This document shows, in pieces, positions 53,771 through 63,387 of a stretch of DNA of 64,000 bases (positions within the stretch are counted from its first letter, which is position 1; the number at the start of each line of letters is the position of its first letter). A program made the position numbers and the translations under genes. This stretch comes from Chloroflexota bacterium. GTDB taxonomy: Bacteria; Chloroflexota; Anaerolineae; UBA4142. Location: positions 28,910 to 92,909 of the forward strand of contig JBBIUF010000003.1 in assembly GCA_037440365.1 (NCBI GenBank). Direction: 5' to 3'. The notes beneath the pieces were generated by a model, which saw only the letters and a program-made list of their open reading frames with translations, was not told the DNA's origin and made no database searches.

Positions 53771-54250
53771 TTACGTGGCGCTACTCGAGCGAGCGCGGCG
53801 CGCGGCAAAAATGATCAGTACCAGCACAACGCCACCCGCTAGGATGAGTAAATCTTCACCCAAGCCGGATTTCGGCAATGTGCCGGTTCCAGGTGTGCCA
53901 GTGCCGGGAGCAACCGTGCCGCTGATAAACGTGGTGGCTGTCACGGTTGAACTGCCGCCCACCGGTGTCCCGCCGCCCCCGCCGCCAATGACGACGAGCG
54001 TAGCCGTTGCCGTTGGTTCCAGCGTGTTTGTCGGTGCAGACGTGGCAACCGCGACCCGCGCCGGTGTTGGGGTGGTTACCGTAACCTTGACTGCTGTTGG
54101 CACCACCGCGGCTGGTTTGGTTATTTGCTGAAAGATCAAAATACCGCCAACGGCAATCCCGCCCAAAATTAACAAGCCAACCAAGCCGAGCGCAATCACC
54201 AAGAATGCTTTGTTGGGTCCGCCACCGCCCGCAGGTGCAACTTCTGCCAT
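53771..54250 (-). CDS. Small Thr/Pro/Gly-rich envelope protein with LPXTG-like (LPKSG) C-terminal sorting signal
   Basis: 159 aa, AAGGAGA RBS. N-terminal TM/signal helix, about 90-aa low-complexity T/P/V/G region, then LPKSG-LGED-hydrophobic 19 aa-RRARSS. Confidence 0.65.
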   Translation of the reverse strand: MAEVAPAGGGGPNKAFLVIALGLVGLLILGGIAVGGILIFQQITKPAAVVPTAVKVTVTTPTPARVAVATSAPTNTLEPTATATLVVIGGGGGGTPVGGSSTVTATTFISGTVAPGTGTPGTGTLPKSGLGEDLLILAGGVVLVLIIFAARRARSSSAT

Positions 54251-54291
54251 AGTTTTGTCTCCTTTTCTCCTGAATGTAAATCCACCCTAGT

Positions 54292-55377
54292 TCAGCCGAT
54301 CAGCTCTAAATTGTCCCAGGGGACGAAAACGTGAGCTTCCGATAAATCAATCTCTGCGCCCCATGCCAGCATCCCGCTATCTAAGGTTCGTGGTGAGGAT
54401 GGAGTGTCGGCAAGTTTGCCGATCTCGCCCGCATATGCGCCATTCACAATTCGCACTGTCGCGCCTACTTCCGCGACCAAGGTTGGCGGCGGCGTTATGG
54501 TGGTGTTGCTGTTCGCCGCGACCAGCATCGGAATGAATATTTCAGGACGCATCCCGTTCTTGACCACAGAGGGGGCGTTGATCACAGTCTCGTCACCGAT
54601 GTGCTGGGAGAGTAAATCAAAAATTGGCGCGCTTATTTTGTGCTCGCCCAAATTTTCCGTCACCAGTGTGGGCAGAGCCAACTCTTTGACCAGCGCGCGC
54701 AAGTCAGGAGCCAAGCCACCGACGATCAAACCTGCCGCGCGTTCTTGTGCCGCGCGGCGGATGGTTGCTTCGGTCACACCGGCGCCAGCAATCAACACCG
54801 CGCCGCGCGCGTTCATATCAATTTTATCATCAGTGAGTACGCTATCCGGTGCATCGGTCATTTTTTTGAGGATGCCATACCCCTCGCCGCCACCACCCCA
54901 GAGCCCTTGCACGAGTGCGCCAGTTGCTTCGATCACGGCACCCATGCGGGGCATGACATTGGTGACACTGCCACGATATAATGCTTTTAACTCAAAGGGG
55001 TCGTCCGCTAGTTCAATGGCAAGCCAAGCGCCTTGTACGGCTGTAATGCGCCCGCCGCTGGGTGCGCGATAAATCCGTTTCAAGGTGCCGAACAATTCCG
55101 GCTTGGAGGCAATGACTTCACGCGCGAGGACATCTTCGCCCGGCTTTTTGAGCAAATAGTTGGGCATCTGTGCTTCGGTGGTGCGTATATAGCGGGCGAG
55201 CGGAACCGGGCGCACATGCCCCAGCGCGTTCGTTTTGGCGATAATATCCAATGCGCCAACGCGCGCGCCCATGCTCACGACCACTGCACCGCGCACCGGA
55301 AGCATGCGTTCGCGTCGAATGCGTGCAAGATTCACCACGCGCGTTTGCGCGAGAGCGGGAATGAACACACTAGTCAT
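54292..55377 (-). CDS. Hypothetical soluble protein (361 aa) with C-terminal KOW-like motif
   Basis: 8-nt overlap with the upstream ATPase gene. C-terminal GATVRIVNGAYAGEIGKL resembles a KOW/SH3-like barrel motif. The rest is unassigned. Confidence 0.65.
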   Translation of the reverse strand: MTSVFIPALAQTRVVNLARIRRERMLPVRGAVVVSMGARVGALDIIAKTNALGHVRPVPLARYIRTTEAQMPNYLLKKPGEDVLAREVIASKPELFGTLKRIYRAPSGGRITAVQGAWLAIELADDPFELKALYRGSVTNVMPRMGAVIEATGALVQGLWGGGGEGYGILKKMTDAPDSVLTDDKIDMNARGAVLIAGAGVTEATIRRAAQERAAGLIVGGLAPDLRALVKELALPTLVTENLGEHKISAPIFDLLSQHIGDETVINAPSVVKNGMRPEIFIPMLVAANSNTTITPPPTLVAEVGATVRIVNGAYAGEIGKLADTPSSPRTLDSGMLAWGAEIDLSEAHVFVPWDNLELIG

Positions 55378-57160
55378 TCATCACCTCGCTACCCAGATCC
55401 CAATACCACCGTTGTACCTGCGCGCGCCGTTTCTCCGCGTCGGTGGACAAGGTGATCGGTCTGCCGCGCGCGTCAATAATCAAACCCAACGCGCCGCCTT
55501 CGATTTCGGCTTTGAAAATACCGGATGTGGGTTTGCCCAAAGTCACTCCGCTGGCGGGACGCGCTTCAATCATGGCTTTTTGCCCTAGCGGTAACGGAAT
55601 CAACTCAAGCGAGCCGTGTTCAACTTCGACATTCATCGTGCCACCGTTGGGAGTTTGCACCGTTATGCGCAAATCAATTTGACCGTCTCGGTTTTTCGAA
55701 AGCGGAACCAGGACGGTGCCCAGTGTGACAAAACCATCGCGTTCAATCACATTTGCCGCGGCTTCGGCGTTCACTGCCGCTAACCCGCCAAATGCCGGCA
55801 CCAAGCCAAGCGTATCAACGGCGAGTGTGAACACGCCAGATGGTTGGATCGTATCCAGCGCGAGTAATGCCAGCGCGCCGAGATTGGTATTGCGCGCGAC
55901 CAGGTTGCCGGTTAATACGATCAAATCCACTTGCGGATCGAGATCACTCGTGGCGATTGTTTCGCCAAGTGCGATATGCGCGGCGGCTTGCGCGAGGAAT
56001 GCTTCTGCGCGTGTGGACGGAATCGCGCGTGGCCGCAAGGCTTGATTCAACCAATGCAATTCCGCCGCTTCCGCGCTCATTTCGATCGGCAACCATTCAG
56101 TCAATCGGTCAATCTCGGCAGGGGTTGGAAGATTTTCCATTTGCCGACTCAGGCCTAGATCGCCGCGGACCACGCGCGTAAACGTTTCGTCGTGTGCCGA
56201 GACGACGGTGATCGCCGCGCGGCTAATATCCGCGCCCAAGACGCGCAGATTGTAGCGGCGCGCCAAAAAGCGCACGACATTTTCAAAAGCGCGGGCGGTT
56301 GGCACAACCGGCGTCGCAAGCCAGTTGGTCAAGGCATTCAAACCGGCAAGCCATGCAATTTTTTTCTCGATATAGATTGTTTCTAGCTCGTGTTGCAACG
56401 GTTGTAGATTTTCGCGTTCCATGGTCGGGCGCACATTATCCACTGGGCGAAGTTGGGTCACTTGGCCCAAGCGCGCGGCAATCTGCGAACGTGCTTCGTT
56501 GTTGCCGGCAAAGATCACAATGGGGCGCGTGCCTTCATCGCGGGAAGCAACGATCGCGGCGACTAGGTTCGTAATATCGTACAGCGCGGCAGTCGCGCCG
56601 CCATCGGTGCCGCCAACTAGGACGATCACTTCGGGATTGGCGCGCGCCAACCCTTCAGCCGCAATCACAGCCGGGTCGAGCGCAGACGCGATCGGCATTT
56701 TGCCGTCTTCGTTGGCAACTTGGGCATGCGCGGGTAACCAACGCCCGCCGCTTTCATCGAGCGCTAAGGTTGCTTCGATTGTGGCGTGGGTGCGCTTGAC
56801 GGCGCGTTCTGCGCTTGTCAAACTGACTTCACGGCTCAGTCCGACAATCGCCACACGCAAGGGTTGCGGCGCGCTCGTTACGATCACGCACGCATCCACG
56901 CCGCGTCCATCCGGGCGTTCGGGTGAAATCAATTGTCCGTCATCGCCAAGGATTTGGCGTTCGGTCTGCATTTGAATTTGCGCGATTGCATTCCGTACTC
57001 CTACGCCCACATCGGCAACGGGGTCGTCGGTCGTCGTCGCCGCAATGCCTGCGCCGACAAAGCGAAATTCGCCGGCGACGAGATCAACCAGCGCAACGTT
57101 CGTTGTGTCGCGACCAATATCGGCGACGAGGAGCGATTCAAGTTTTTGCAAGTCTGCCAT
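55370..57160 (-). CDS. GlmL/MutL-family (glutamate-mutase-L-like) ASKHA/actin-fold ATPase homologue
   Basis: 596 aa. N-terminal phosphate-1-like LLVADIGRDTTNVALVD, second nucleotide-fold-like VIVLVGGTDGG. Family call is from memory of GlmL-like sequences. Confidence 0.6.
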   Translation of the reverse strand: MADLQKLESLLVADIGRDTTNVALVDLVAGEFRFVGAGIAATTTDDPVADVGVGVRNAIAQIQMQTERQILGDDGQLISPERPDGRGVDACVIVTSAPQPLRVAIVGLSREVSLTSAERAVKRTHATIEATLALDESGGRWLPAHAQVANEDGKMPIASALDPAVIAAEGLARANPEVIVLVGGTDGGATAALYDITNLVAAIVASRDEGTRPIVIFAGNNEARSQIAARLGQVTQLRPVDNVRPTMERENLQPLQHELETIYIEKKIAWLAGLNALTNWLATPVVPTARAFENVVRFLARRYNLRVLGADISRAAITVVSAHDETFTRVVRGDLGLSRQMENLPTPAEIDRLTEWLPIEMSAEAAELHWLNQALRPRAIPSTRAEAFLAQAAAHIALGETIATSDLDPQVDLIVLTGNLVARNTNLGALALLALDTIQPSGVFTLAVDTLGLVPAFGGLAAVNAEAAANVIERDGFVTLGTVLVPLSKNRDGQIDLRITVQTPNGGTMNVEVEHGSLELIPLPLGQKAMIEARPASGVTLGKPTSGIFKAEIEGGALGLIIDARGRPITLSTDAEKRRAQVQRWYWDLGSEVMND

Positions 57161-57210
57161 TTTGGATCAGGTGTGTAGATTGGCGATGCGGGTCTAGGGC
57201 CAGTGTGTCA

Positions 57211-57867
57211 CTAGTGAATGAGCGGCAACCAATCATGCAAGATATAGTAAACTCGGCCGATCAAGATCGAAACGCGCGAAACGGCGGTTTGCGCAAAAAT
57301 TGCGCCGAACGCAATCAGGATGAACCAGCGCCCGATATAGCCCCAACCGCGCGCGAGCGTGTCCACCGCGCGCATGGATACGCGCTGAGGCGATTGAATA
57401 AATCGAAATGAGAGAAATGCGCCGACCGCGCCGAATACCATGAGTGCGTTGTTGGCAACCACATCCATTCCTTGCGTGGGTGACAGCGAGACCATCAGCG
57501 CGGCAATTTGCGGCACGAGTGCGCCTTGCAACGCGCCGCCAATGGCAAGCGCGCCGCCAATCCCAAATAGAAACGCAATTGGAAGGTTGCCGAGTGGCGC
57601 CCAGGTCGCGCGTAATTTTGCGAACAATAACAAGCCTAACACGAGTGGAATGATCAGGTGCCATTGATTTGCCGCGTCATCCAAAAGGGGCCATGCCAGT
57701 TGATCAATCAGCACGACGTTGATCGCGAGTACCGCCGCATAGCCAACCGCGACACCCACAAAGATCGCTTGGGCAATGCGAAACAAAGGCGTATCGCCCA
57801 ACAAGTAACTCAACACCAACAGTGTCAGGATTGCGCCGACGGTTACGCCAATAAAATCGCTGTTCAT
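57211..57867 (-). CDS. Polytopic membrane protein, unknown function (218 aa)
   Basis: About 6 predicted TM helices. 4-nt overlap with the upstream gene. No family recognised. Confidence 0.7.
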   Translation of the reverse strand: MNSDFIGVTVGAILTLLVLSYLLGDTPLFRIAQAIFVGVAVGYAAVLAINVVLIDQLAWPLLDDAANQWHLIIPLVLGLLLFAKLRATWAPLGNLPIAFLFGIGGALAIGGALQGALVPQIAALMVSLSPTQGMDVVANNALMVFGAVGAFLSFRFIQSPQRVSMRAVDTLARGWGYIGRWFILIAFGAIFAQTAVSRVSILIGRVYYILHDWLPLIH

Positions 57868-60113
57868 TTCGTCTTGTCCTGTGCGTGTTGCAATCGCCGT
57901 GTCAAATAAACTAGGTTGCCCAAGATAATGACGAACACGAACACTAGTTGCGCCGCAGTTTGGGCGTCGACACTTGTTACCGCCAGGCTTGCCGATTGAT
58001 TCGAAAGCAATTCATATTGCGCCGCGCCCAACAAGCCGCTCGTGATTGCGATGAGTTGGTTGGCATCGCGGTAGGCGCGTGCTTTTGGTTCGACTGCGGC
58101 GCTCACACCTGCCGCCATCGGTACGTTTGAAGGCAGGGCGACTTGTTCCAGCCACAATTTCAAATCGTTTTCCGATCCCGCTAACTCGATGACCAGCTTG
58201 ACGTCGCGCAACGATTTAAGGTTTGCGGTTACTGGGTATTTGCCCAACGCTTGGCCCTTGACGTCATTGCCCGTAAATCCGCGTGATGCAAACGCCGACA
58301 AACCCGCTTCGTGCCCGGCGATCCAATTCAGTATGACATAGTGTGTGCCGTACGTATAGTTACTGGCGTCTTGCGCGACGGTTGTCAAAACTCGTTGCGC
58401 AATCTGTGGCCCCGTTTCGTGCGTGCTGACGGCGACAATGTTGACATTCCGCGAAACCAGGTCGCGCGCAATGGTTGTGGCGAGCAGGTCCATCTCGCCT
58501 GACATGCCAGGATCGTAATCGAATGCCAATACGACCGTTGCGCCTGCGGGTAATTTGTGCACCACTTGGACGAAATCTTCCGCCGGCACGTGTCCTGTAA
58601 TTGGCACCGCCGCGCCAAAGAGATCGAATTTAACAAAGAACGGCAACACGACGGCGATGAACATGAACAAATAAATCAGCGGGCGCATGGTCCAAGCGCG
58701 CCGTGTTTTTGCGGCAACCGGCGCAGTCGTCACCGCAGGCGCGGCGAGAATCGCTTCAAATGCGCGCGCATGCTCCGATGCAGTTGTGGACGTTGCTGAT
58801 TTCGTTGTTGGAAAGGCATGTGGTTCGGCAATCGCTAATGCCAAGGGCAATACGCCACGCAACCCTTCAAGCGGTCCGGTTAGTTCCGTTTGCTCTTGTA
58901 CGGCGTCGGATGTTTCGGCTGGCTTGAGCGCGGCGACCCATGCCGGCACTTCTTCCGGCAATGCGGGTTGCAATGCCGGGGGTGCTGATTCAGTTGAAGC
59001 AGGTTCGCCAGTTGACGCGGGCGCTGGACCGCGCAACCAGTCGGGCAAATCATCGTCGTCGCTGGATTCCGTCATGGGCGCTTCAAGTGCCCATGCAGGT
59101 ACTTGCGAATCGAGCGGCGGCGCAACGAACGGGACATCGGATTCTAGAGATTCGAGCAAGAGATCGTTCGGCGATTCCTTGGCGGCGACAGGTGTAGACG
59201 CGGGTTCGACTGGTGGTTTGAGCGTTTCAAGCCAATCTGGGATCGCCGGTTCATCTACTGGTGTCGGCGCGATCGGTTCCGGAGTTGGCTCGACAGATTG
59301 ACCAATTGGCGGCAACAGTACCGCAGGCGGTGTAACTGGAGCAGGTGGGGTAAGCGGTGCGGGTTCGATTGGCGTGGCTTCAGTCCTGGGCAACCGCTTG
59401 AGCCAATCTGGGATTTCGCCGATGGTCGGTGACGATTCTTCCTGTGCGCCAATTGCTTCGGTGAGTGCAGATTCTTCGCGCGTTGGCTCATCGCGCAAGC
59501 GCTTGAGCCAATCAGGCGTTTCATCTGGCGTGTCATCGCTCGGCGATGCTGACCCGCGTGCTGGTGGCGCGCCTTTAAGCCAATCGGGAGTATCGGATGG
59601 AGATTCTTCTTTAATTGATGAATCCAAGATGGGCGCGGCGGATGCGTCGGTGGTCGGCTCATCTGCAGGTTGCGCCATGCGCAAACGCGCCAGCCAATCT
59701 GGGGTTTGATCTGGTGCAGGTGGCGGTTCGACGGCAAGCGATTCTGGTTTAAGCGTCGGCGCTGTTTCTTCCGCGGGCGGTGTTGTGGTGCGTAAACGTT
59801 CGAGCCAATCTTCAGCCGAAGGTTGTCCGGCGGCGGAGCTTGGCGGTTCAACTTTGGCGGGCGGTTCGACATGTTTTGCCGGAAGCGACAGTCCTTTGAT
59901 CGGCACAGCGGGTTGAACTTTTTCCGCCTCTGGTGCGGCGGTTAAGGGAACCAAGCGCGCGCCACAGCTACTGCAAAAAACACTTTCGACTTTGTTTGCC
60001 GTGCCGCACATGGGGCAAGTCAAACCCGACGCTTGTGTAAAGCGCGCGCCGCAGTTACTGCAAAATTTACTGCCATCTCGATTTTGGGTCCCGCAATGAG
60101 CACAATGAATCAT
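57864..60113 (-). CDS. Double zinc-ribbon protein with disordered PDWL-motif array and C-terminal TM-domain-TM module
   Basis: 749 aa. CAHCGT..CSNCG and CPMCGT..CSSCG. aa 100-395 are P/E/A/T-rich with 7 xDWL plus 2 PAW variants. TM helices near aa 455 and 715. Confidence 0.8.
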   Translation of the reverse strand: MIHCAHCGTQNRDGSKFCSNCGARFTQASGLTCPMCGTANKVESVFCSSCGARLVPLTAAPEAEKVQPAVPIKGLSLPAKHVEPPAKVEPPSSAAGQPSAEDWLERLRTTTPPAEETAPTLKPESLAVEPPPAPDQTPDWLARLRMAQPADEPTTDASAAPILDSSIKEESPSDTPDWLKGAPPARGSASPSDDTPDETPDWLKRLRDEPTREESALTEAIGAQEESSPTIGEIPDWLKRLPRTEATPIEPAPLTPPAPVTPPAVLLPPIGQSVEPTPEPIAPTPVDEPAIPDWLETLKPPVEPASTPVAAKESPNDLLLESLESDVPFVAPPLDSQVPAWALEAPMTESSDDDDLPDWLRGPAPASTGEPASTESAPPALQPALPEEVPAWVAALKPAETSDAVQEQTELTGPLEGLRGVLPLALAIAEPHAFPTTKSATSTTASEHARAFEAILAAPAVTTAPVAAKTRRAWTMRPLIYLFMFIAVVLPFFVKFDLFGAAVPITGHVPAEDFVQVVHKLPAGATVVLAFDYDPGMSGEMDLLATTIARDLVSRNVNIVAVSTHETGPQIAQRVLTTVAQDASNYTYGTHYVILNWIAGHEAGLSAFASRGFTGNDVKGQALGKYPVTANLKSLRDVKLVIELAGSENDLKLWLEQVALPSNVPMAAGVSAAVEPKARAYRDANQLIAITSGLLGAAQYELLSNQSASLAVTSVDAQTAAQLVFVFVIILGNLVYLTRRLQHAQDKTK

Positions 60114-60115
60114 GG

Positions 60116-60715
60116 TTATTCAGAATAGGGTCGATCCATGCCGACGATCAAACGCAACGCAGTCGCGATTGTGCCAAGCGCCACACCCAACAAAATGCCG
60201 CGCACGCCGGCGACACTTGGCACGTTCAGCAACCACTCTTTCGCTTGCGTTGCCACGTTGAGCAAGGGTGCCTGCCCAATAAACACGACGAGCGCGGTGA
60301 TCAACATCAGCAATGTTTCGATGTTCCGTGCGCGCATCGCGCGATACGCGGCGGTTGCCAAGAAGAATGCGGACAGCGCAAAGAATGCGCTTTGTAAGGG
60401 TGTGTAGATGTTATTGAAAATCCACGCCATCGCGTCGCCGGACGAGCCAAAAAGCAGACCGATCACTAGGACTAGAAATGCGGTAACGATCACGATCACG
60501 CTATAGCCCGCGCCCGGTTCGCTTCGCTTGACAATCCGCGACAGGTGGACGAGTAATAGATTGACTAAACCCAGGAGCAACGCAAACGCCGTGAGGATCA
60601 CTGCCCATTGTCGGAACGCGACGCCGAGCGCGCCCAGCACGGTCTGCTGGAAAAAGAAAGTGAGCAGAGTGACGAATCCAACGCCAATTGCAATTGCGGT
60701 GGCTAACCACTTCAT
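60116..60715 (-). CDS. Polytopic membrane protein, unknown function (199 aa)
   Basis: About 5-6 TM helices. 1-nt and 2-nt gaps to the neighbouring genes. No family recognised. Confidence 0.7.
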   Translation of the reverse strand: MKWLATAIAIGVGFVTLLTFFFQQTVLGALGVAFRQWAVILTAFALLLGLVNLLLVHLSRIVKRSEPGAGYSVIVIVTAFLVLVIGLLFGSSGDAMAWIFNNIYTPLQSAFFALSAFFLATAAYRAMRARNIETLLMLITALVVFIGQAPLLNVATQAKEWLLNVPSVAGVRGILLGVALGTIATALRLIVGMDRPYSE

Positions 60716-60716
60716 C

Positions 60717-61535
60717 TTACACCAGCCCCAAGGTTTTCAACACGATGGCGACAAACACGCCGCCAACCAGAACCCAACGCATAATGTCTTGCGCGAGCAA
60801 ACTGCTCAAGTGTGAGGGCTTGTTTGCTAGATACGCGCCGCCCGCATAAATCTCTTCGCCGATGAGTGGATGGGTCATGGTGGCGTTCACAAAGGGCAGA
60901 ACCCCCGGCGCGCTCGTGCCGCCGATTTGCATGAGTTCACGTTGTGCGCCCGTTTCACCCAACAACAAAAACTCGTCGCCGAAACGCCCAATCATCACGT
61001 TCGCCGCCAACTTTTGCTGATTCAATAAACGCATAACGCCCGCCGCATACGCAAACGCCCCAGCAGATCCGTTCGGCGATTCGATTAGAAGCGGCGGCGG
61101 TGCAACAAAGCGCGCATGGGTTGGGTTATATTCTTCAGGATATCCTTGCCGATTATACGCGCGGCGCAAAATATCTTGCGCGACGAGCAAGGCTGTTGGG
61201 TTAGCGACGGTAATAGTGGACGGCGTTGCGTTGACCGCACTACGATCAGCCATATAGTCCAACACCGTGAGCGCGGCGGCGGTATCTGCCGTCGCTTCAT
61301 CACCGATGCCAGCGACGCCAAGCGATAGATGCACCGGTTGCCCAAGTTCTGCCGCGCGTCCTAACAAACTTTTGAGCGTGGCATAGCCCGCAATCGGACG
61401 CAAGGTGAACTGCGCCCCGCGTTTCACTGCCCAGTAGGCAAAGAAAAAAATGGGGAGGAAAAAGAGGAAAAGTCCGAGCATGATGGCTTGCTCGGTGCCA
61501 ATCGTTGAATTGAGAAGATTCAGTAACGCATCCAA
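60717..61535 (-). CDS. Membrane protein, TM-soluble domain-TM architecture, unknown function (272 aa)
   Basis: N-terminal TM (LGLFLFFLPIFFFAYW), about 210-aa domain, C-terminal TM (WVLVGGVFVAIVL). No family recognised. Confidence 0.7.
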   Translation of the reverse strand: MDALLNLLNSTIGTEQAIMLGLFLFFLPIFFFAYWAVKRGAQFTLRPIAGYATLKSLLGRAAELGQPVHLSLGVAGIGDEATADTAAALTVLDYMADRSAVNATPSTITVANPTALLVAQDILRRAYNRQGYPEEYNPTHARFVAPPPLLIESPNGSAGAFAYAAGVMRLLNQQKLAANVMIGRFGDEFLLLGETGAQRELMQIGGTSAPGVLPFVNATMTHPLIGEEIYAGGAYLANKPSHLSSLLAQDIMRWVLVGGVFVAIVLKTLGLV

Positions 61536-61574
61536 CCCGCGACTCCTGATGAATGGTCACGTGCGCCGATACTG

Positions 61575-61850
61575 CTAATTAGGATTTGGGCGTTGATTCG
61601 CTTCCAAGTGTGCGAGTAACGCTTCAACCCCGTCTGGCTCTTGCACAATCAAGGTGAAATCGTTATAGTCCGCCGCATTGAATCCAAACGAGAGCAAGGG
61701 CTGGGCAACCCAAAGCAATTGCGCGCCCAAAAACGCCAACGGCTTGAAGGACTCGAAAAACAAAATCGCCGGTGCGGTCATTCCCAGTTCGGCGATCCGC
61801 CGCGCCAAACGATTCAGAACTTCTTCGCGTCGTGCCGGGTTCAAACACAT
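61575..61850 (-). CDS. Small hydrophobic protein, unknown function (91 aa)
   Basis: First ORF after the consensus promoter. One or two hydrophobic helices (APAILFFESFKPLAFLGAQLLWVAQPLL). Weak RBS, so the start is uncertain. Confidence 0.5.
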   Translation of the reverse strand: MCLNPARREEVLNRLARRIAELGMTAPAILFFESFKPLAFLGAQLLWVAQPLLSFGFNAADYNDFTLIVQEPDGVEALLAHLEANQRPNPN

Positions 61851-61890
61851 CGTTTAGCTCACAGAAGATTCTTATCCAACTCTGTTTCTC

Positions 61891-61919
61891 ATTATAAGTC
61901 TAGTATCACGTCAAGTCAA
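61891..61919 (-). promoter_or_regulatory. Near-consensus sigma-70 promoter of the 61.85-53.77 kb operon
   Basis: Minus strand reads TTGACT-17 nt-TATAAT, about 40 nt upstream of the ATG at 61850. Confidence 0.7.
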
Positions 61920-62146
61920 GCGTCCGATTGTCTGCACGAATCACGCTGGCATGGGTGCGCGTCCTAGTTTTGGATCGTTGCAGAGTTTGACCGCCATCGT
62001 TTTCAAACGATGGCTCACAAGATAAAAACTCGGTGAGCCGAGTTGCGCAAAGCGAATCGGTTTGGCCGAGTTGCACTTGCTCAGCCGCCGAATTTGATTC
62101 GGCGCTCGCCAAAAAAACTGACGCACACCTCGCTGGCATCGTCAAA

Positions 62147-62175
62147 TTGTCAAACCTCGCGCTTTCAGGTATAAT
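62147..62175 (+). promoter_or_regulatory. Near-consensus sigma-70 promoter upstream of the sugar ABC permease genes
   Basis: TTGTCA-17 nt-TATAAT. Predicts a leader of about 185 nt before the GTG at 62368. Confidence 0.65.
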
Positions 62176-62367
62176 CGCCACCGGAATTCTCAAGCAACCG
62201 ATCGAGCGCAAACCAATGGGTTGGTGGTTTAAGAAAACCTAACCGCAACGTTACATCCGCACTATGTTTGGATCAATCCATCTTAACCTAGACCGTCTAG
62301 TCTCAAGCGAGCTCACTGTGGTCGTCGAGGCATAGCGCTCTACGGCTAGAGCCGAGGAGTATCTAGC

Positions 62368-63387
62368 GTGGCTGAATCTGCTACACCTGTTTCGAAAACG
62401 CAAACCCGCGTCGCCACCACTACTGTCCATCCTCACCCGCGCCGAATCCAGTGGTCAGCCTACCTCTATATCCTGCCCGCGTTTGCGATCATCATCACCT
62501 TTCACATCCTGCCTGTGTTCTACGCAATTTATATCAGCCTGAACAAAGGTGCCATCAACAAATTTCAATTTGTAGGTCTGGAGAATTATGCGCGCGCGCT
62601 GGGGAGCGGCGATTTTTGGAACGCGCTCGTCACCACGTTTGCGTATGCGCTGTTGACCATGCCCTTTACGATTGCACTCGCCTTGTTCTTTGCCTACTTG
62701 CTTTACCAACCGTTTGTCAAAGCGCGCGGTTTTTTTCGCGCAATTTTTTTCCTGCCCTATGTCGTGTCCACCGTCGGTTCTTCGATTGTGTGGGCATGGA
62801 TTTTCGATCCGCGGAGCGGTCTCGCCAACTGGATGCTCAAACATCTGGGTCTGCCATCTTTGCGTTGGTTGATTGAACCCTCCGGTATTTTCGAGATCAT
62901 GGCGAAAAATGCGGGCATTACTCTGCCGGGTTGGGCGAACGGGCCCAGCCTTGCGCTCGTCGCCATCGCGATTTTTTCCATCTGGCAAGCGATGGGCTAT
63001 GACATTGTAATCTTTCTTGCGGGACTCACGAACATTCCGGGCGAATTGTACGAAGCGGCACGCATGGACGGCGCAAATGGTTGGGATTTGTTTCGCAACA
63101 TCACCTTGCCCTTGCTTGCGCCAACGACGTTTTTCGTGATCGTCATTTCAGTCATAGGGTCACTCCAATCGTTCAATCATATCTTTACGATGAACAAAGC
63201 GGCGGCGCAATCATTGGGCGGACCGCTGGGTAGCACCAGCACCTTGACCGTGTACATGTTCGATCAACTCTACTCGTACTCCAATTACGGTTACGCCTCG
63301 GCGATTGCCATTTTGCTTTCGCTGATTATCCTCAGTTTCACCATTTTCAACTTTACCGTCCTCGAAAAACGCGCGCGCCCAAATTAA
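62368..63387 (+). CDS. Carbohydrate ABC transporter permease (MalF/UgpA-like)
   Basis: 339 aa, GTG start with GAGGAG 8 nt upstream. 6 TM helices. EAA loop (LYEAARMDGANGWDLFRNITLPLL). Confidence 0.9.
   Translation: MAESATPVSKTQTRVATTTVHPHPRRIQWSAYLYILPAFAIIITFHILPVFYAIYISLNKGAINKFQFVGLENYARALGSGDFWNALVTTFAYALLTMPFTIALALFFAYLLYQPFVKARGFFRAIFFLPYVVSTVGSSIVWAWIFDPRSGLANWMLKHLGLPSLRWLIEPSGIFEIMAKNAGITLPGWANGPSLALVAIAIFSIWQAMGYDIVIFLAGLTNIPGELYEAARMDGANGWDLFRNITLPLLAPTTFFVIVISVIGSLQSFNHIFTMNKAAAQSLGGPLGSTSTLTVYMFDQLYSYSNYGYASAIAILLSLIILSFTIFNFTVLEKRARPN

Follow-up and report, generated by a model that had tools for sequence, protein, structure and literature searches.

The analysed stretch, a 64,000-nucleotide (nt) piece of a contig from a Chloroflexota bacterium (hereafter the window), carries on its minus strand, between positions 61919 and 53771, an eight-gene operon, g1 to g8, organised around g6, an ASKHA-fold protein of the MutL/GlmL family. 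The eight genes form a real, tightly conserved operon, and the cluster consists of two modules: a membrane quartet (g2, g3, the C-terminal module of g4, and g5) and an ATPase trio (g1, g6 and g7). The features of the locus, with protein lengths in amino acids (aa) and transmembrane segments abbreviated as TM, are the following.

61919-61891, minus strand: candidate sigma-70-like promoter, TTGACT-17-TATAAT, with 11 of 12 positions matching
61850-61575, minus strand: g1, 91 aa, with a conserved hydrophobic core; member of the ATPase trio
61535-60717, minus strand: g2, 272 aa, TTG start; DUF6754 protein; first gene of the membrane quartet
60715-60116, minus strand: g3, 199 aa, polytopic membrane protein; second gene of the quartet
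60113-57864, minus strand: g4, 749 aa, with zinc ribbons, a motif arm and a C-terminal module
59955..60113, minus strand: N-terminus of g4, double zinc ribbon, residues 1-53, predicted to be cytoplasmic
58935..59705, minus strand: disordered arm of g4, with eight acidic PDWL-type linear motifs
57864..58721, minus strand: C-terminal module of g4, residues ~465-749, predicted as TM, extracytoplasmic alpha/beta domain, TM; third member of the quartet
57867-57211, minus strand: g5, 218 aa, polytopic membrane protein; fourth gene of the quartet, with a 4-nt overlap with g4
57160-55370, minus strand: g6, 596 aa, MutL/GlmL-family ASKHA fold (residues 11-474) followed by a ~120-aa C-terminal domain
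55377-54292, minus strand: g7, 361 aa, soluble, with beta-barrel domains, an alpha/beta domain and a C-terminal KOW/SH3-like barrel; 8-nt overlap with g6
54250-53771, minus strand: g8, 159 aa, rich in Thr, Pro and Gly, with an N-terminal TM segment or signal anchor and a C-terminal sortase-type sorting signal

The junctions from g1 to g8 measure, in order, +39, +1, +2, -4, +50, -8 and +41 nt, so that two gene pairs (g4/g5 and g6/g7) overlap and the remaining junctions are tight. The eight minus-strand open reading frames (ORFs), their spacing and the site at 61919-61891 are exactly as described in the original prediction, which had been made from the letters of the DNA. The TTGACT-17-TATAAT site is plausible as a promoter because it lies ~35 nt upstream of the first ATG; taken by itself the match is weak evidence, since the region holds 7 promoter-like sites compared with 4.5 +/- 1.9 in shuffled sequences. 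Since it is preserved in several phyla, the arrangement of the eight genes goes far beyond what chance would produce.

Conservation within Chloroflexota is readily apparent from a scan of one genome per GTDB species, in which g6 relatives with the C-terminal motifs were detected in at least 532 genomes; hidden Markov models (HMMs) of the eight products were then searched over the best 80 loci of these. Forty-five loci have enough flanking sequence (6 kb or more on the upstream side of g6 and 2.5 kb or more on its downstream side). The order g2-g3-(g4)-g5-g6-g7 is colinear in 41 of these 45, and all eight genes occur in order in 32. The gene order is kept down to 32% identity of g6 and is identical in four contexts at 45-60% identity, and the loci are labelled as Anaerolineae/Anaerolineales, Thermoflexia/Thermoflexales, Ardenticatenaceae, Promineifilaceae, Chloroflexia and Chloroheliaceae. 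Next to g6 stands g7, the two genes being adjacent in 81 of 84 loci and also in WOR-3, Zixibacteria and NPL-UPA2. No general additional neighbour is conserved across the loci, and one locus (L055) shows only g6 and g8. Collectively, the synteny and the Pfam match of g6 described below bear out the proposal of a dedicated unit, conserved and associated with the membrane, that has an ASKHA protein of the MutL/GlmL family at its centre. Two complete operons of the Chloroflexota type, L009 and L065 (g6 identity of 59% and 32%), are found in metagenome-assembled genomes (MAGs) labelled Acidobacteriota and Syntrophothermus; mis-binning seems a more likely explanation for them than transfer.

The division into two modules emerges from the loci of other phyla, obtained by scanning metagenome contigs with a profile of g2 proteins and searching the 80 resulting loci with the Chloroflexota HMMs. 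Outside Chloroflexota, 67 of the 73 g2 genes with enough downstream sequence are followed by g3, a ~280-aa protein whose homology to g4 is limited to the C-terminal module, and g5, and two or three tandem quartets are present in 12 loci. In three WOR-3-like and Zixibacteria-like loci, L122, L126 and L157, the quartets come immediately after the trio g1-g6-g7, and g1 stands directly upstream of g6. In L148 the g6-g7 pair lies upstream of the quartets, L117 carries a truncated g6 together with g7, L127 and L139 show g7 at the contig edge, and g6 is located divergently upstream in L151-L153. Exact-sequence look-ups assign L126 and its relatives to WOR-3 and TA06, L157 to Zixibacteria, the ~950-aa forms of g2 to Cloacimonadota and another g2 form to Abditibacteriales (Armatimonadota). 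The trio can also be found alone: in an NPL-UPA2/Bacillota MAG (L074:571-4364) it occurs without a quartet, with g1 upstream of g6 at a distance of ~120 nt, a second g1-like gene after g7, and housekeeping genes on its flanks (thiL-like, tsaE, tsaB, rimI-like, tsaD, groEL). This locus suggests that the ATPase module can act alone or together with partners whose genes lie in another place.

In Chloroflexota the quartet is located between g1 and g6. Trio and quartet are thus adjacent despite a differing order, and their association therefore survives gene-order change across phyla. The same observations bear on the simplest alternative, according to which a housekeeping g6/g7 pair merely sits beside an unrelated membrane operon with no shared function. 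That each module can occur without the other nearby is what such an explanation would lead one to expect; however, at least three lineages of phylum rank (Chloroflexota, WOR-3 and Zixibacteria) have the modules side by side despite the different order, their junctions are tight or overlapping, and no other neighbour is conserved, and a chance neighbourhood is regarded as barely credible. The original prediction is thereby shown to have been too narrow in both taxonomy and architecture, the system being modular and extending beyond Chloroflexota. The co-occurrence of the GlmL-like gene with the zinc-ribbon/PDWL gene and the membrane genes, which it had proposed to check, holds in most of the Chloroflexota loci and, in WOR-3 and Zixibacteria, for the quartet and the trio, though not for the zinc-ribbon/PDWL part.

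For g6, the assignment to the MutL family is unambiguous at the level of Pfam, with a match to PF13941 of E 1e-50 and 173.4 bits (cut-off 27) that spans residues 11-474 and is near full-length on the profile (positions 2-448 of 450). The narrower designation as GlmL does not hold: g6 reaches 74.1 bits against the NCBIfam GlmL equivalog NF040745 (cut-off 475) and 39.7 bits against the TIGR01319 subfamily (cut-off 204), with the alignment in this comparison limited to residues 170-326. Of the earlier label "GlmL/MutL family", the family membership is therefore retained and the GlmL function is not; g6 is a Pfam MutL member but not a GlmL equivalog, as the curated score and the genomic context both fail. 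No other Pfam family matches g6 at E 0.1 or better, FtsA, MreB, PilM, GspL, DDR and EutA included, and no PDB sequence was matched by sequence or profile search. The search for relatives returned 177 proteins, the best of which is only 63% identical, and all named matches derive from Chloroflexota/Anaerolineae MAGs.

The nucleotide-binding motifs expected for an ASKHA protein are conserved at the level of the g6 family, as found in an alignment of 88 relatives covering both the phosphate-1 and phosphate-2 loops. In the phosphate-1 loop, D14 is kept in 95%, G16 in 100%, T20 in 97% and K/R21 in 85% of the relatives, and further conserved positions are GG183-184 (100%), D311 (85%) and G313 (97%); the family accordingly shares the motifs DxGSxxTK, GGxDGG and DIGGxxT. 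The most conserved part of the family is the ~120-aa C-terminal extension beyond the Pfam domain, where GGxxGxxxDARGRP is preserved at 96-100% and its DARGRP portion at 98-100%. This extension shows no homology with g7, a relationship that was considered and rejected (hhalign probability 0.3%). The protein of the window departs from its relatives at two of these positions, with N21 in the phosphate-1 loop, where 85% of the relatives have Lys or Arg, and S313 in the DIGG loop, where 97% have Gly; this organism may thus have a weaker or modified nucleotide site.

The family assignment invites a further explanation, in which g6 and g7 act as a reactivating chaperone for a B12 or radical enzyme, in the style of GlmL, DdrA or EutA, with the quartet as the enzyme or its anchor. 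Membership of g6 in Pfam MutL and its size of ~600 aa, similar to that of DdrA, are consistent with this explanation. The same applies to a B12-binding-domain gene of ~140 aa that lies divergently upstream of g1 in eight related Anaerolineales loci (L059, L060, L062, L064, L071, L075, L081 and L084; about 4.3-5.2 kb, minus strand), whose product is methylmalonyl-CoA-mutase-like and carries the DxHxxG motif as GLDGHDRG. These eight loci are close relatives, so they count as one evolutionary event, and the presence of the gene probably reflects a single event in that lineage. Neither the window nor any of the other 76 Chloroflexota loci yielded a gene for a B12-binding domain with one phmmer query, of limited sensitivity, and glmE was not searched for; within the reach of that query, the earlier observation that neither glmS nor glmE lies nearby is upheld as far as the B12-binding domain is concerned. 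Furthermore, g6 falls far below the GlmL and TIGR01319 cut-offs and lacks a DDR or EutA match, and its conserved partners are membrane proteins without cofactor motifs; His69 of g2 is unconserved outside Chloroflexota. A reactivating chaperone is considered very unlikely, and the system is not a glutamate-mutase accessory.

The quartet begins with g2, which matches DUF6754 (PF20539) at E 2e-45 and 155.3 bits (cut-off 27). Its AlphaFold2 model (pLDDT 94.5, pTM 0.89) comprises a Rossmann-like alpha/beta domain flanked by TM helices at 14-38 and 240-268. Within the domain, strand 68-73 is followed by a loop, Gly-rich by sequence, and by helix 82-102, and many polar residues of this domain, predicted to be cytoplasmic, are invariant. 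The Foldseek neighbours of the model are generic Rossmann-like folds, with TMq values of 0.37 or less, and include nucleotide- or sugar-phosphate-binding folds (MurG, PGK, SIS, LOG). The family is large: the search returned at least 1637 representative clusters at 50% identity with E 1e-3 or better, and the g2-family profile picks up 7998 or more clusters at 90% identity. Many homologues are 400-1066 aa long and carry DUF6754 at the C-terminus, after a signal peptide and a large variable region that in some cases includes FN3, PKD or PQQ-propeller domains. Of 94 such long forms, 85 begin with a hydrophobic segment that resembles a signal sequence.

Of the other three members of the quartet, g3 and g5 are polytopic, and in each of them a small number of Arg, His, Asp, Asn or Gln residues are conserved. 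The 749-aa g4 has hydrophobic segments at about 478-496 and 712-730, and its C-terminal module aligns with the ~280-aa stand-alone homologues of other phyla; in loci of the Cloacimonadota type the homologue is ~400 aa long. No consistent Pfam family was found for g3, g5 and the g4 C-terminal module (27, 28 and 17 members scanned, respectively), and their profiles match no PDB sequence. Against NCBIfam, the membrane subunits of the quartet give only far-sub-threshold noise, with no ABC, Rnf/Nqr, MotAB/ExbBD/TolQR or Mce match.

The orientation of the two TM-domain-TM proteins was derived from the mean numbers of Lys plus Arg over 164 g2 and 131 g4 homologues. In g2, the mean is 4.2 after the first TM segment and 1.1 before it. 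In g4, it amounts to 3.1 before the first and 3.5 after the second TM segment, compared with 1.1 and 1.4 on the domain side. This distribution of positive charge predicts opposite topologies, with the g2 core in the cytoplasm and the g4 C-terminal core outside it. The opposite topology, together with an hhalign probability of 3.6% and no significant BLASTP match, speaks against the suggested paralogy of the 272-aa protein and the C-terminal module of the 749-aa protein, which is rejected. The parallel suggestion for the 199-aa and 218-aa proteins fares no better, with an hhalign probability of 0.7% and nothing significant in BLASTP.

The architecture of the quartet is one argument for an explanation in which the system is a new ATP-driven transporter. 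The four subunits, two polytopic and two of TM-domain-TM type with ~16 TM helices in total, would form the pathway for a solute, a lipid or a polymer precursor, the Rossmann-like domain of g2 would bind a phosphorylated or nucleotide-linked substrate, and g6 and g7 would energise or gate the passage. Several features are in agreement with such a role: conserved polar residues occur in or near the TM segments (H260 and N271 in the second TM segment of g4; H57, R172 and R195 in g3; D25, N26, Q120 and R205 in g5), g2 has the strand-loop-helix element and the fold neighbours mentioned above, and several quartets stand beside one ATPase module in a manner that resembles the Mce and ECF (energy-coupling factor) systems. 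On the other hand, Pfam, NCBIfam and PDB reveal no similarity of the proteins to transporter families, neither a substrate-binding protein nor a metabolic gene is a consistent neighbour, and no transporter is known to be powered by an ASKHA protein. Transport is considered unlikely.

The partners of g6 in the ATPase trio are less readily classified. The 91-aa g1 contains a conserved hydrophobic stretch of ~35 residues with the core pattern ..TAPAIxFxESxKPxxFxxAQ..P.. and matches no Pfam family; its earlier description as a hydrophobic protein is accurate with regard to this stretch, which remains below the standard hydropathy threshold for a TM segment. For g7, the predicted KOW-like end scores below the family cut-off of Pfam (PF00467, 18.1 bits, cut-off 22.3). 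The AlphaFold2 model (pLDDT 89.2) consists of beta-barrel domains, an alpha/beta domain and a C-terminal barrel, and a Foldseek search against the PDB superposes the C-terminal ~60 residues on KOW domains of Spt5/NusG (root-mean-square deviation 1.9-2.3 Å over 59-60 columns, probability about 1.0, E between about 1e-3 and 1e-2). The same search returned no whole-fold match for g7 (TMq 0.2 or less), the KOW barrel and a weak PA-domain-like match being the only similarities. NqrA/RnfC-like, DdrB-like and B12-binding-domain readings of g7 and g2 were also considered and are absent among the Foldseek matches.

The zinc ribbons and motif arm of g4 and the whole of g8 were found only in the Chloroflexota loci. 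All three parts attributed to the 749-aa protein were confirmed, namely the two N-terminal zinc ribbons, the PDWL array and a TM-domain-TM module of its own. Residues 1-53 form a double zinc ribbon (PF13240, PF12773 and related families); the CxxC..CxxC pattern is present in 52 of 66 Chloroflexota g4 orthologues, and the region is absent from g4 proteins outside the phylum. In the protein analysed here the arm bears eight [ILVT]P[DA]W[LVA] motifs within residues 137-393, and the window contains no second array of this kind. Among 66 orthologues, 62 have at least two [ILV]P[DE]W[L] motifs, with a median of about 5 and a maximum of 26, around the consensus EEE-[LVI]-P-D-W-L-x-x-L-x-P, and the length of g4 varies widely across Chloroflexota (378-1423 aa). 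The scaffold composed of zinc ribbon and PDWL arm is a lineage-specific addition and not the core of the system, a point that the original prediction had missed.

The motif arm also figures in a cytoskeletal explanation, in which g6 polymerises like MreB, FtsA or ParM and forms part of a membrane-anchored morphogenetic apparatus for division, filament formation or gliding; the LPDWL arm would then mimic the C-terminal peptide of FtsZ (D-I-P-x-F-L-R), which binds the actin-like FtsA. The membership of g6 in an ASKHA-fold family is compatible with this, many hosts are filamentous Chloroflexota, and the acidic [LVI]PDWLxxL motifs resemble the FtsZ peptide, a resemblance that serves only as a lead. 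Nevertheless, WOR-3, Zixibacteria and Cloacimonadota also possess the system, with a g4 entirely devoid of the arm, and g6 has no FtsA, MreB or PilM match in Pfam. Division or cell-wall genes are not consistently adjacent, and no member of the GlmL family is known to polymerise. A polymerising g6 is judged very improbable.

The product of the last gene, g8, has the C-terminal features of sortase (LPXTG) substrates, namely the motif, the hydrophobic helix and the basic tail. In the window its C-terminus consists of LPKSG, the hydrophobic helix LGEDLLILAGGVVLVLIIFAA and RRAR, and an L[PAS]x[TSA]G motif with a hydrophobic helix and an RRLR-type tail is found in 40 of 69 orthologues, in agreement with the sorting-like signal that had been recognised in the single sequence. 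No sortase gene lies within the operon, and the HMM search did not find g8 in the metagenome loci of other phyla. A different class of sorted surface protein adjoins the system in Cloacimonadota. In nine loci of that type a ~720-aa protein with the C-terminal sorting domain of the type IX secretion system (T9SS; Por_Secre_tail/FlgD_ig) is encoded downstream. Two phyla thus have genes for sorted surface proteins beside the system, Chloroflexota with g8 of the LPxTG type and Cloacimonadota with proteins that bear the T9SS C-terminal domain. This adjacency is weak evidence that fits a surface role. Loci of the Cloacimonadota type additionally carry, after the quartet, a second ~950-aa DUF6754 gene without a quartet of its own (L098-L100, L112, L115, L116, L125, L143, L165 and L166).

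Taken as a whole, these results are best accommodated by an envelope-spanning machine in which a cytoplasmic ASKHA ATPase module acts on the membrane quartet, an interpretation that is advanced tentatively, at somewhat less than even confidence. The gene content, conservation, modularity, predicted topology and folds are matters of observation; the physical coupling of the modules, the use of ATP, the direction of signalling and the role in the envelope are inferred from them. In such a machine the trio, itself cytoplasmic or peripheral, would dock on the cytoplasmic face of the quartet, with g1 probably serving as the membrane tether. A nucleotide-dependent change in the conformation of g6, of the kind that ASKHA proteins undergo, would be relayed through the quartet to the outward-facing domains, i.e., the g4 core and the variable ectodomains of g2, which would in turn act on the cell envelope, for example by assembling, displaying or remodelling a surface component. 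In Chloroflexota, the LPDWL arm and the zinc-ribbon head may recruit the trio or other partners in a multivalent manner, the SH3-like barrel of g7 and g6 itself being candidate receptors for the array and g8 a candidate client or product. In other phyla the outward-facing domains of g2 vary, and one ATPase trio can stand beside several quartets.

Several observations weigh against this interpretation. The coupling of the two modules may not be obligatory, as L043, L079 and L074 carry g6-g7 without membrane genes nearby and the quartets of Cloacimonadota have neither g6 nor g7 within 10 kb. The N21 and S313 substitutions make the ATPase competence and ATP turnover of the window g6 itself uncertain, and no mechanochemical role is known for GlmL-family proteins. 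The invariant polar residues of the g2 domain would also fit an enzyme or a ligand-binding site. Finally, the adjacency of sorted surface proteins could be coincidental, because the Cloacimonadota loci are close relatives of one another, and proteins of this kind are frequent in that group.

The surroundings of the operon are as follows. Its 3' boundary is clear, as a T-box leader (Rfam RF00230, 97.5 bits, E 3e-20) lies directly downstream at 53669-53350 on the minus strand and belongs to the following tryptophanyl-tRNA synthetase gene. The leader has a promoter-like site of its own, TTGACA-17-TATAGT with a TG extension, at 53714-53686, and a 13-bp terminator hairpin at 53458-53430; since it precedes the synthetase gene, the listed 421-aa ORF (53529-52264) is over-extended. 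The segment 50801-53529 (minus strand) contains this tRNA-synthetase gene (class Ib, PF00579) and, after it, a PALP (TrpB-like) gene. The pair is also kept in relatives at 54-60% identity (L002, L003 and L004), which additionally have PilZ-domain genes a few genes beyond it. On the other side, a divergent intergenic region of ~450 bp (61920-62367) separates the operon from a plus-strand ABC-type permease-like ORF (62368-63387); it has no Rfam match and contains a hairpin with a T-run at 62044-62027 (minus strand), upstream of the operon promoter, and a TTGTCA-17-TATAAT site at 62147-62175 (plus strand). In other Chloroflexota loci, a PspA/IM30-like gene occurs about 6 kb downstream of the g6 start (12 loci, e.g., L079:14751-15443) and a ~450-aa AAA/STAND-like gene directly follows g8 (13 loci, e.g., L057:13462-14817). 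These neighbours, like the B12-binding-domain gene, are lineage-restricted.

The scale of the families involved gives the system a relevance beyond this locus. With at least 1637 DUF6754 clusters at 50% identity and g6 relatives in at least 532 species genomes, it represents large and widespread unexplained biology, and for several host phyla most or all knowledge comes from metagenomes. The conserved membrane context provides a concrete new hypothesis for this branch of ASKHA proteins. If it is correct, the GlmL family would acquire its first function outside B12 enzymology, and an ATPase of the actin/Hsp70 fold coupled to a membrane complex would constitute a new way to signal or to do work across a membrane. 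A parts list is now defined, which includes two modules, predicted topologies, the DARGRP domain, the LPDWL array as a putative docking element and a candidate LPxTG client.

With respect to known systems, g1-g8 is rated as lying outside every described kind, its function being read from anatomy and gene context. This agrees with the original prediction, which could not map the set to any described system: among curated Pfam and NCBIfam families, only DUF6754, MutL and zinc ribbons match the eight products above threshold, the searches with g2 to g7 found no specific PDB relative, the anti-phage defence models of PADLOC match none of the eight proteins, and the literature searched contains no mention of DUF6754, PF20539, PF13941 or the PDWL motif in this sense. 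The closest relationship is with GlmL/MutL itself, which is known only as an accessory of glutamate (methylaspartate) mutase. The likeness consists of the full-length PF13941 match and the three shared motifs, whereas g6 differs in its additional DARGRP-containing domain, its pairing with g7 and usually with membrane proteins, and a conserved context free of B12-enzyme neighbours. The reactivases DdrAB and EutA similarly combine an ASKHA large subunit of comparable size with a smaller partner containing an alpha/beta domain; here, in contrast, there is no DDR or EutA match, g7 has no PDB fold match beyond the KOW barrel, and no cofactor-dependent enzyme is consistently adjacent to the system.

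A resemblance in logic, by analogy, is provided by PilM-PilN-PilO of type IV pili, GspL-GspM of type II secretion and FtsA-FtsN/FtsZ, in which a cytoplasmic actin-fold protein works with membrane proteins that expose domains on the opposite side, and where a short linear peptide motif on a partner may likewise be the docking element. No sequence or profile similarity accompanies this analogy; pilin, secretin and division genes are lacking here, and the membrane partners differ, being TM-domain-TM hairpins together with two polytopic subunits. In terms of genetic organisation, the mycobacterial Mce operons with MceG and the group II ECF transporters offer the nearest parallel, as one ATPase is thought to serve several paralogous membrane cassettes in both. 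One ATPase trio beside two or three tandem quartets with differing g2 ectodomains corresponds to this layout, and the gene order, on which the comparison depends, suggests a similar sharing of the ATPase; the difference lies in the ASKHA fold, which takes the place of the P-loop/ABC fold, and no component is homologous. These comparisons leave room for a more specific proposal, put forward with somewhat less confidence than the general one: an undescribed class of envelope machine in which a GlmL-type ATPase, its KOW-ended partner and a tether would drive or gate a four-subunit membrane complex in place of a P-loop ATPase, with one module serving several paralogous cassettes. With equal reserve, such a class would extend over Chloroflexota, WOR-3, TA06 and Zixibacteria, with the quartet also in Cloacimonadota and DUF6754 proteins also in Armatimonadota.

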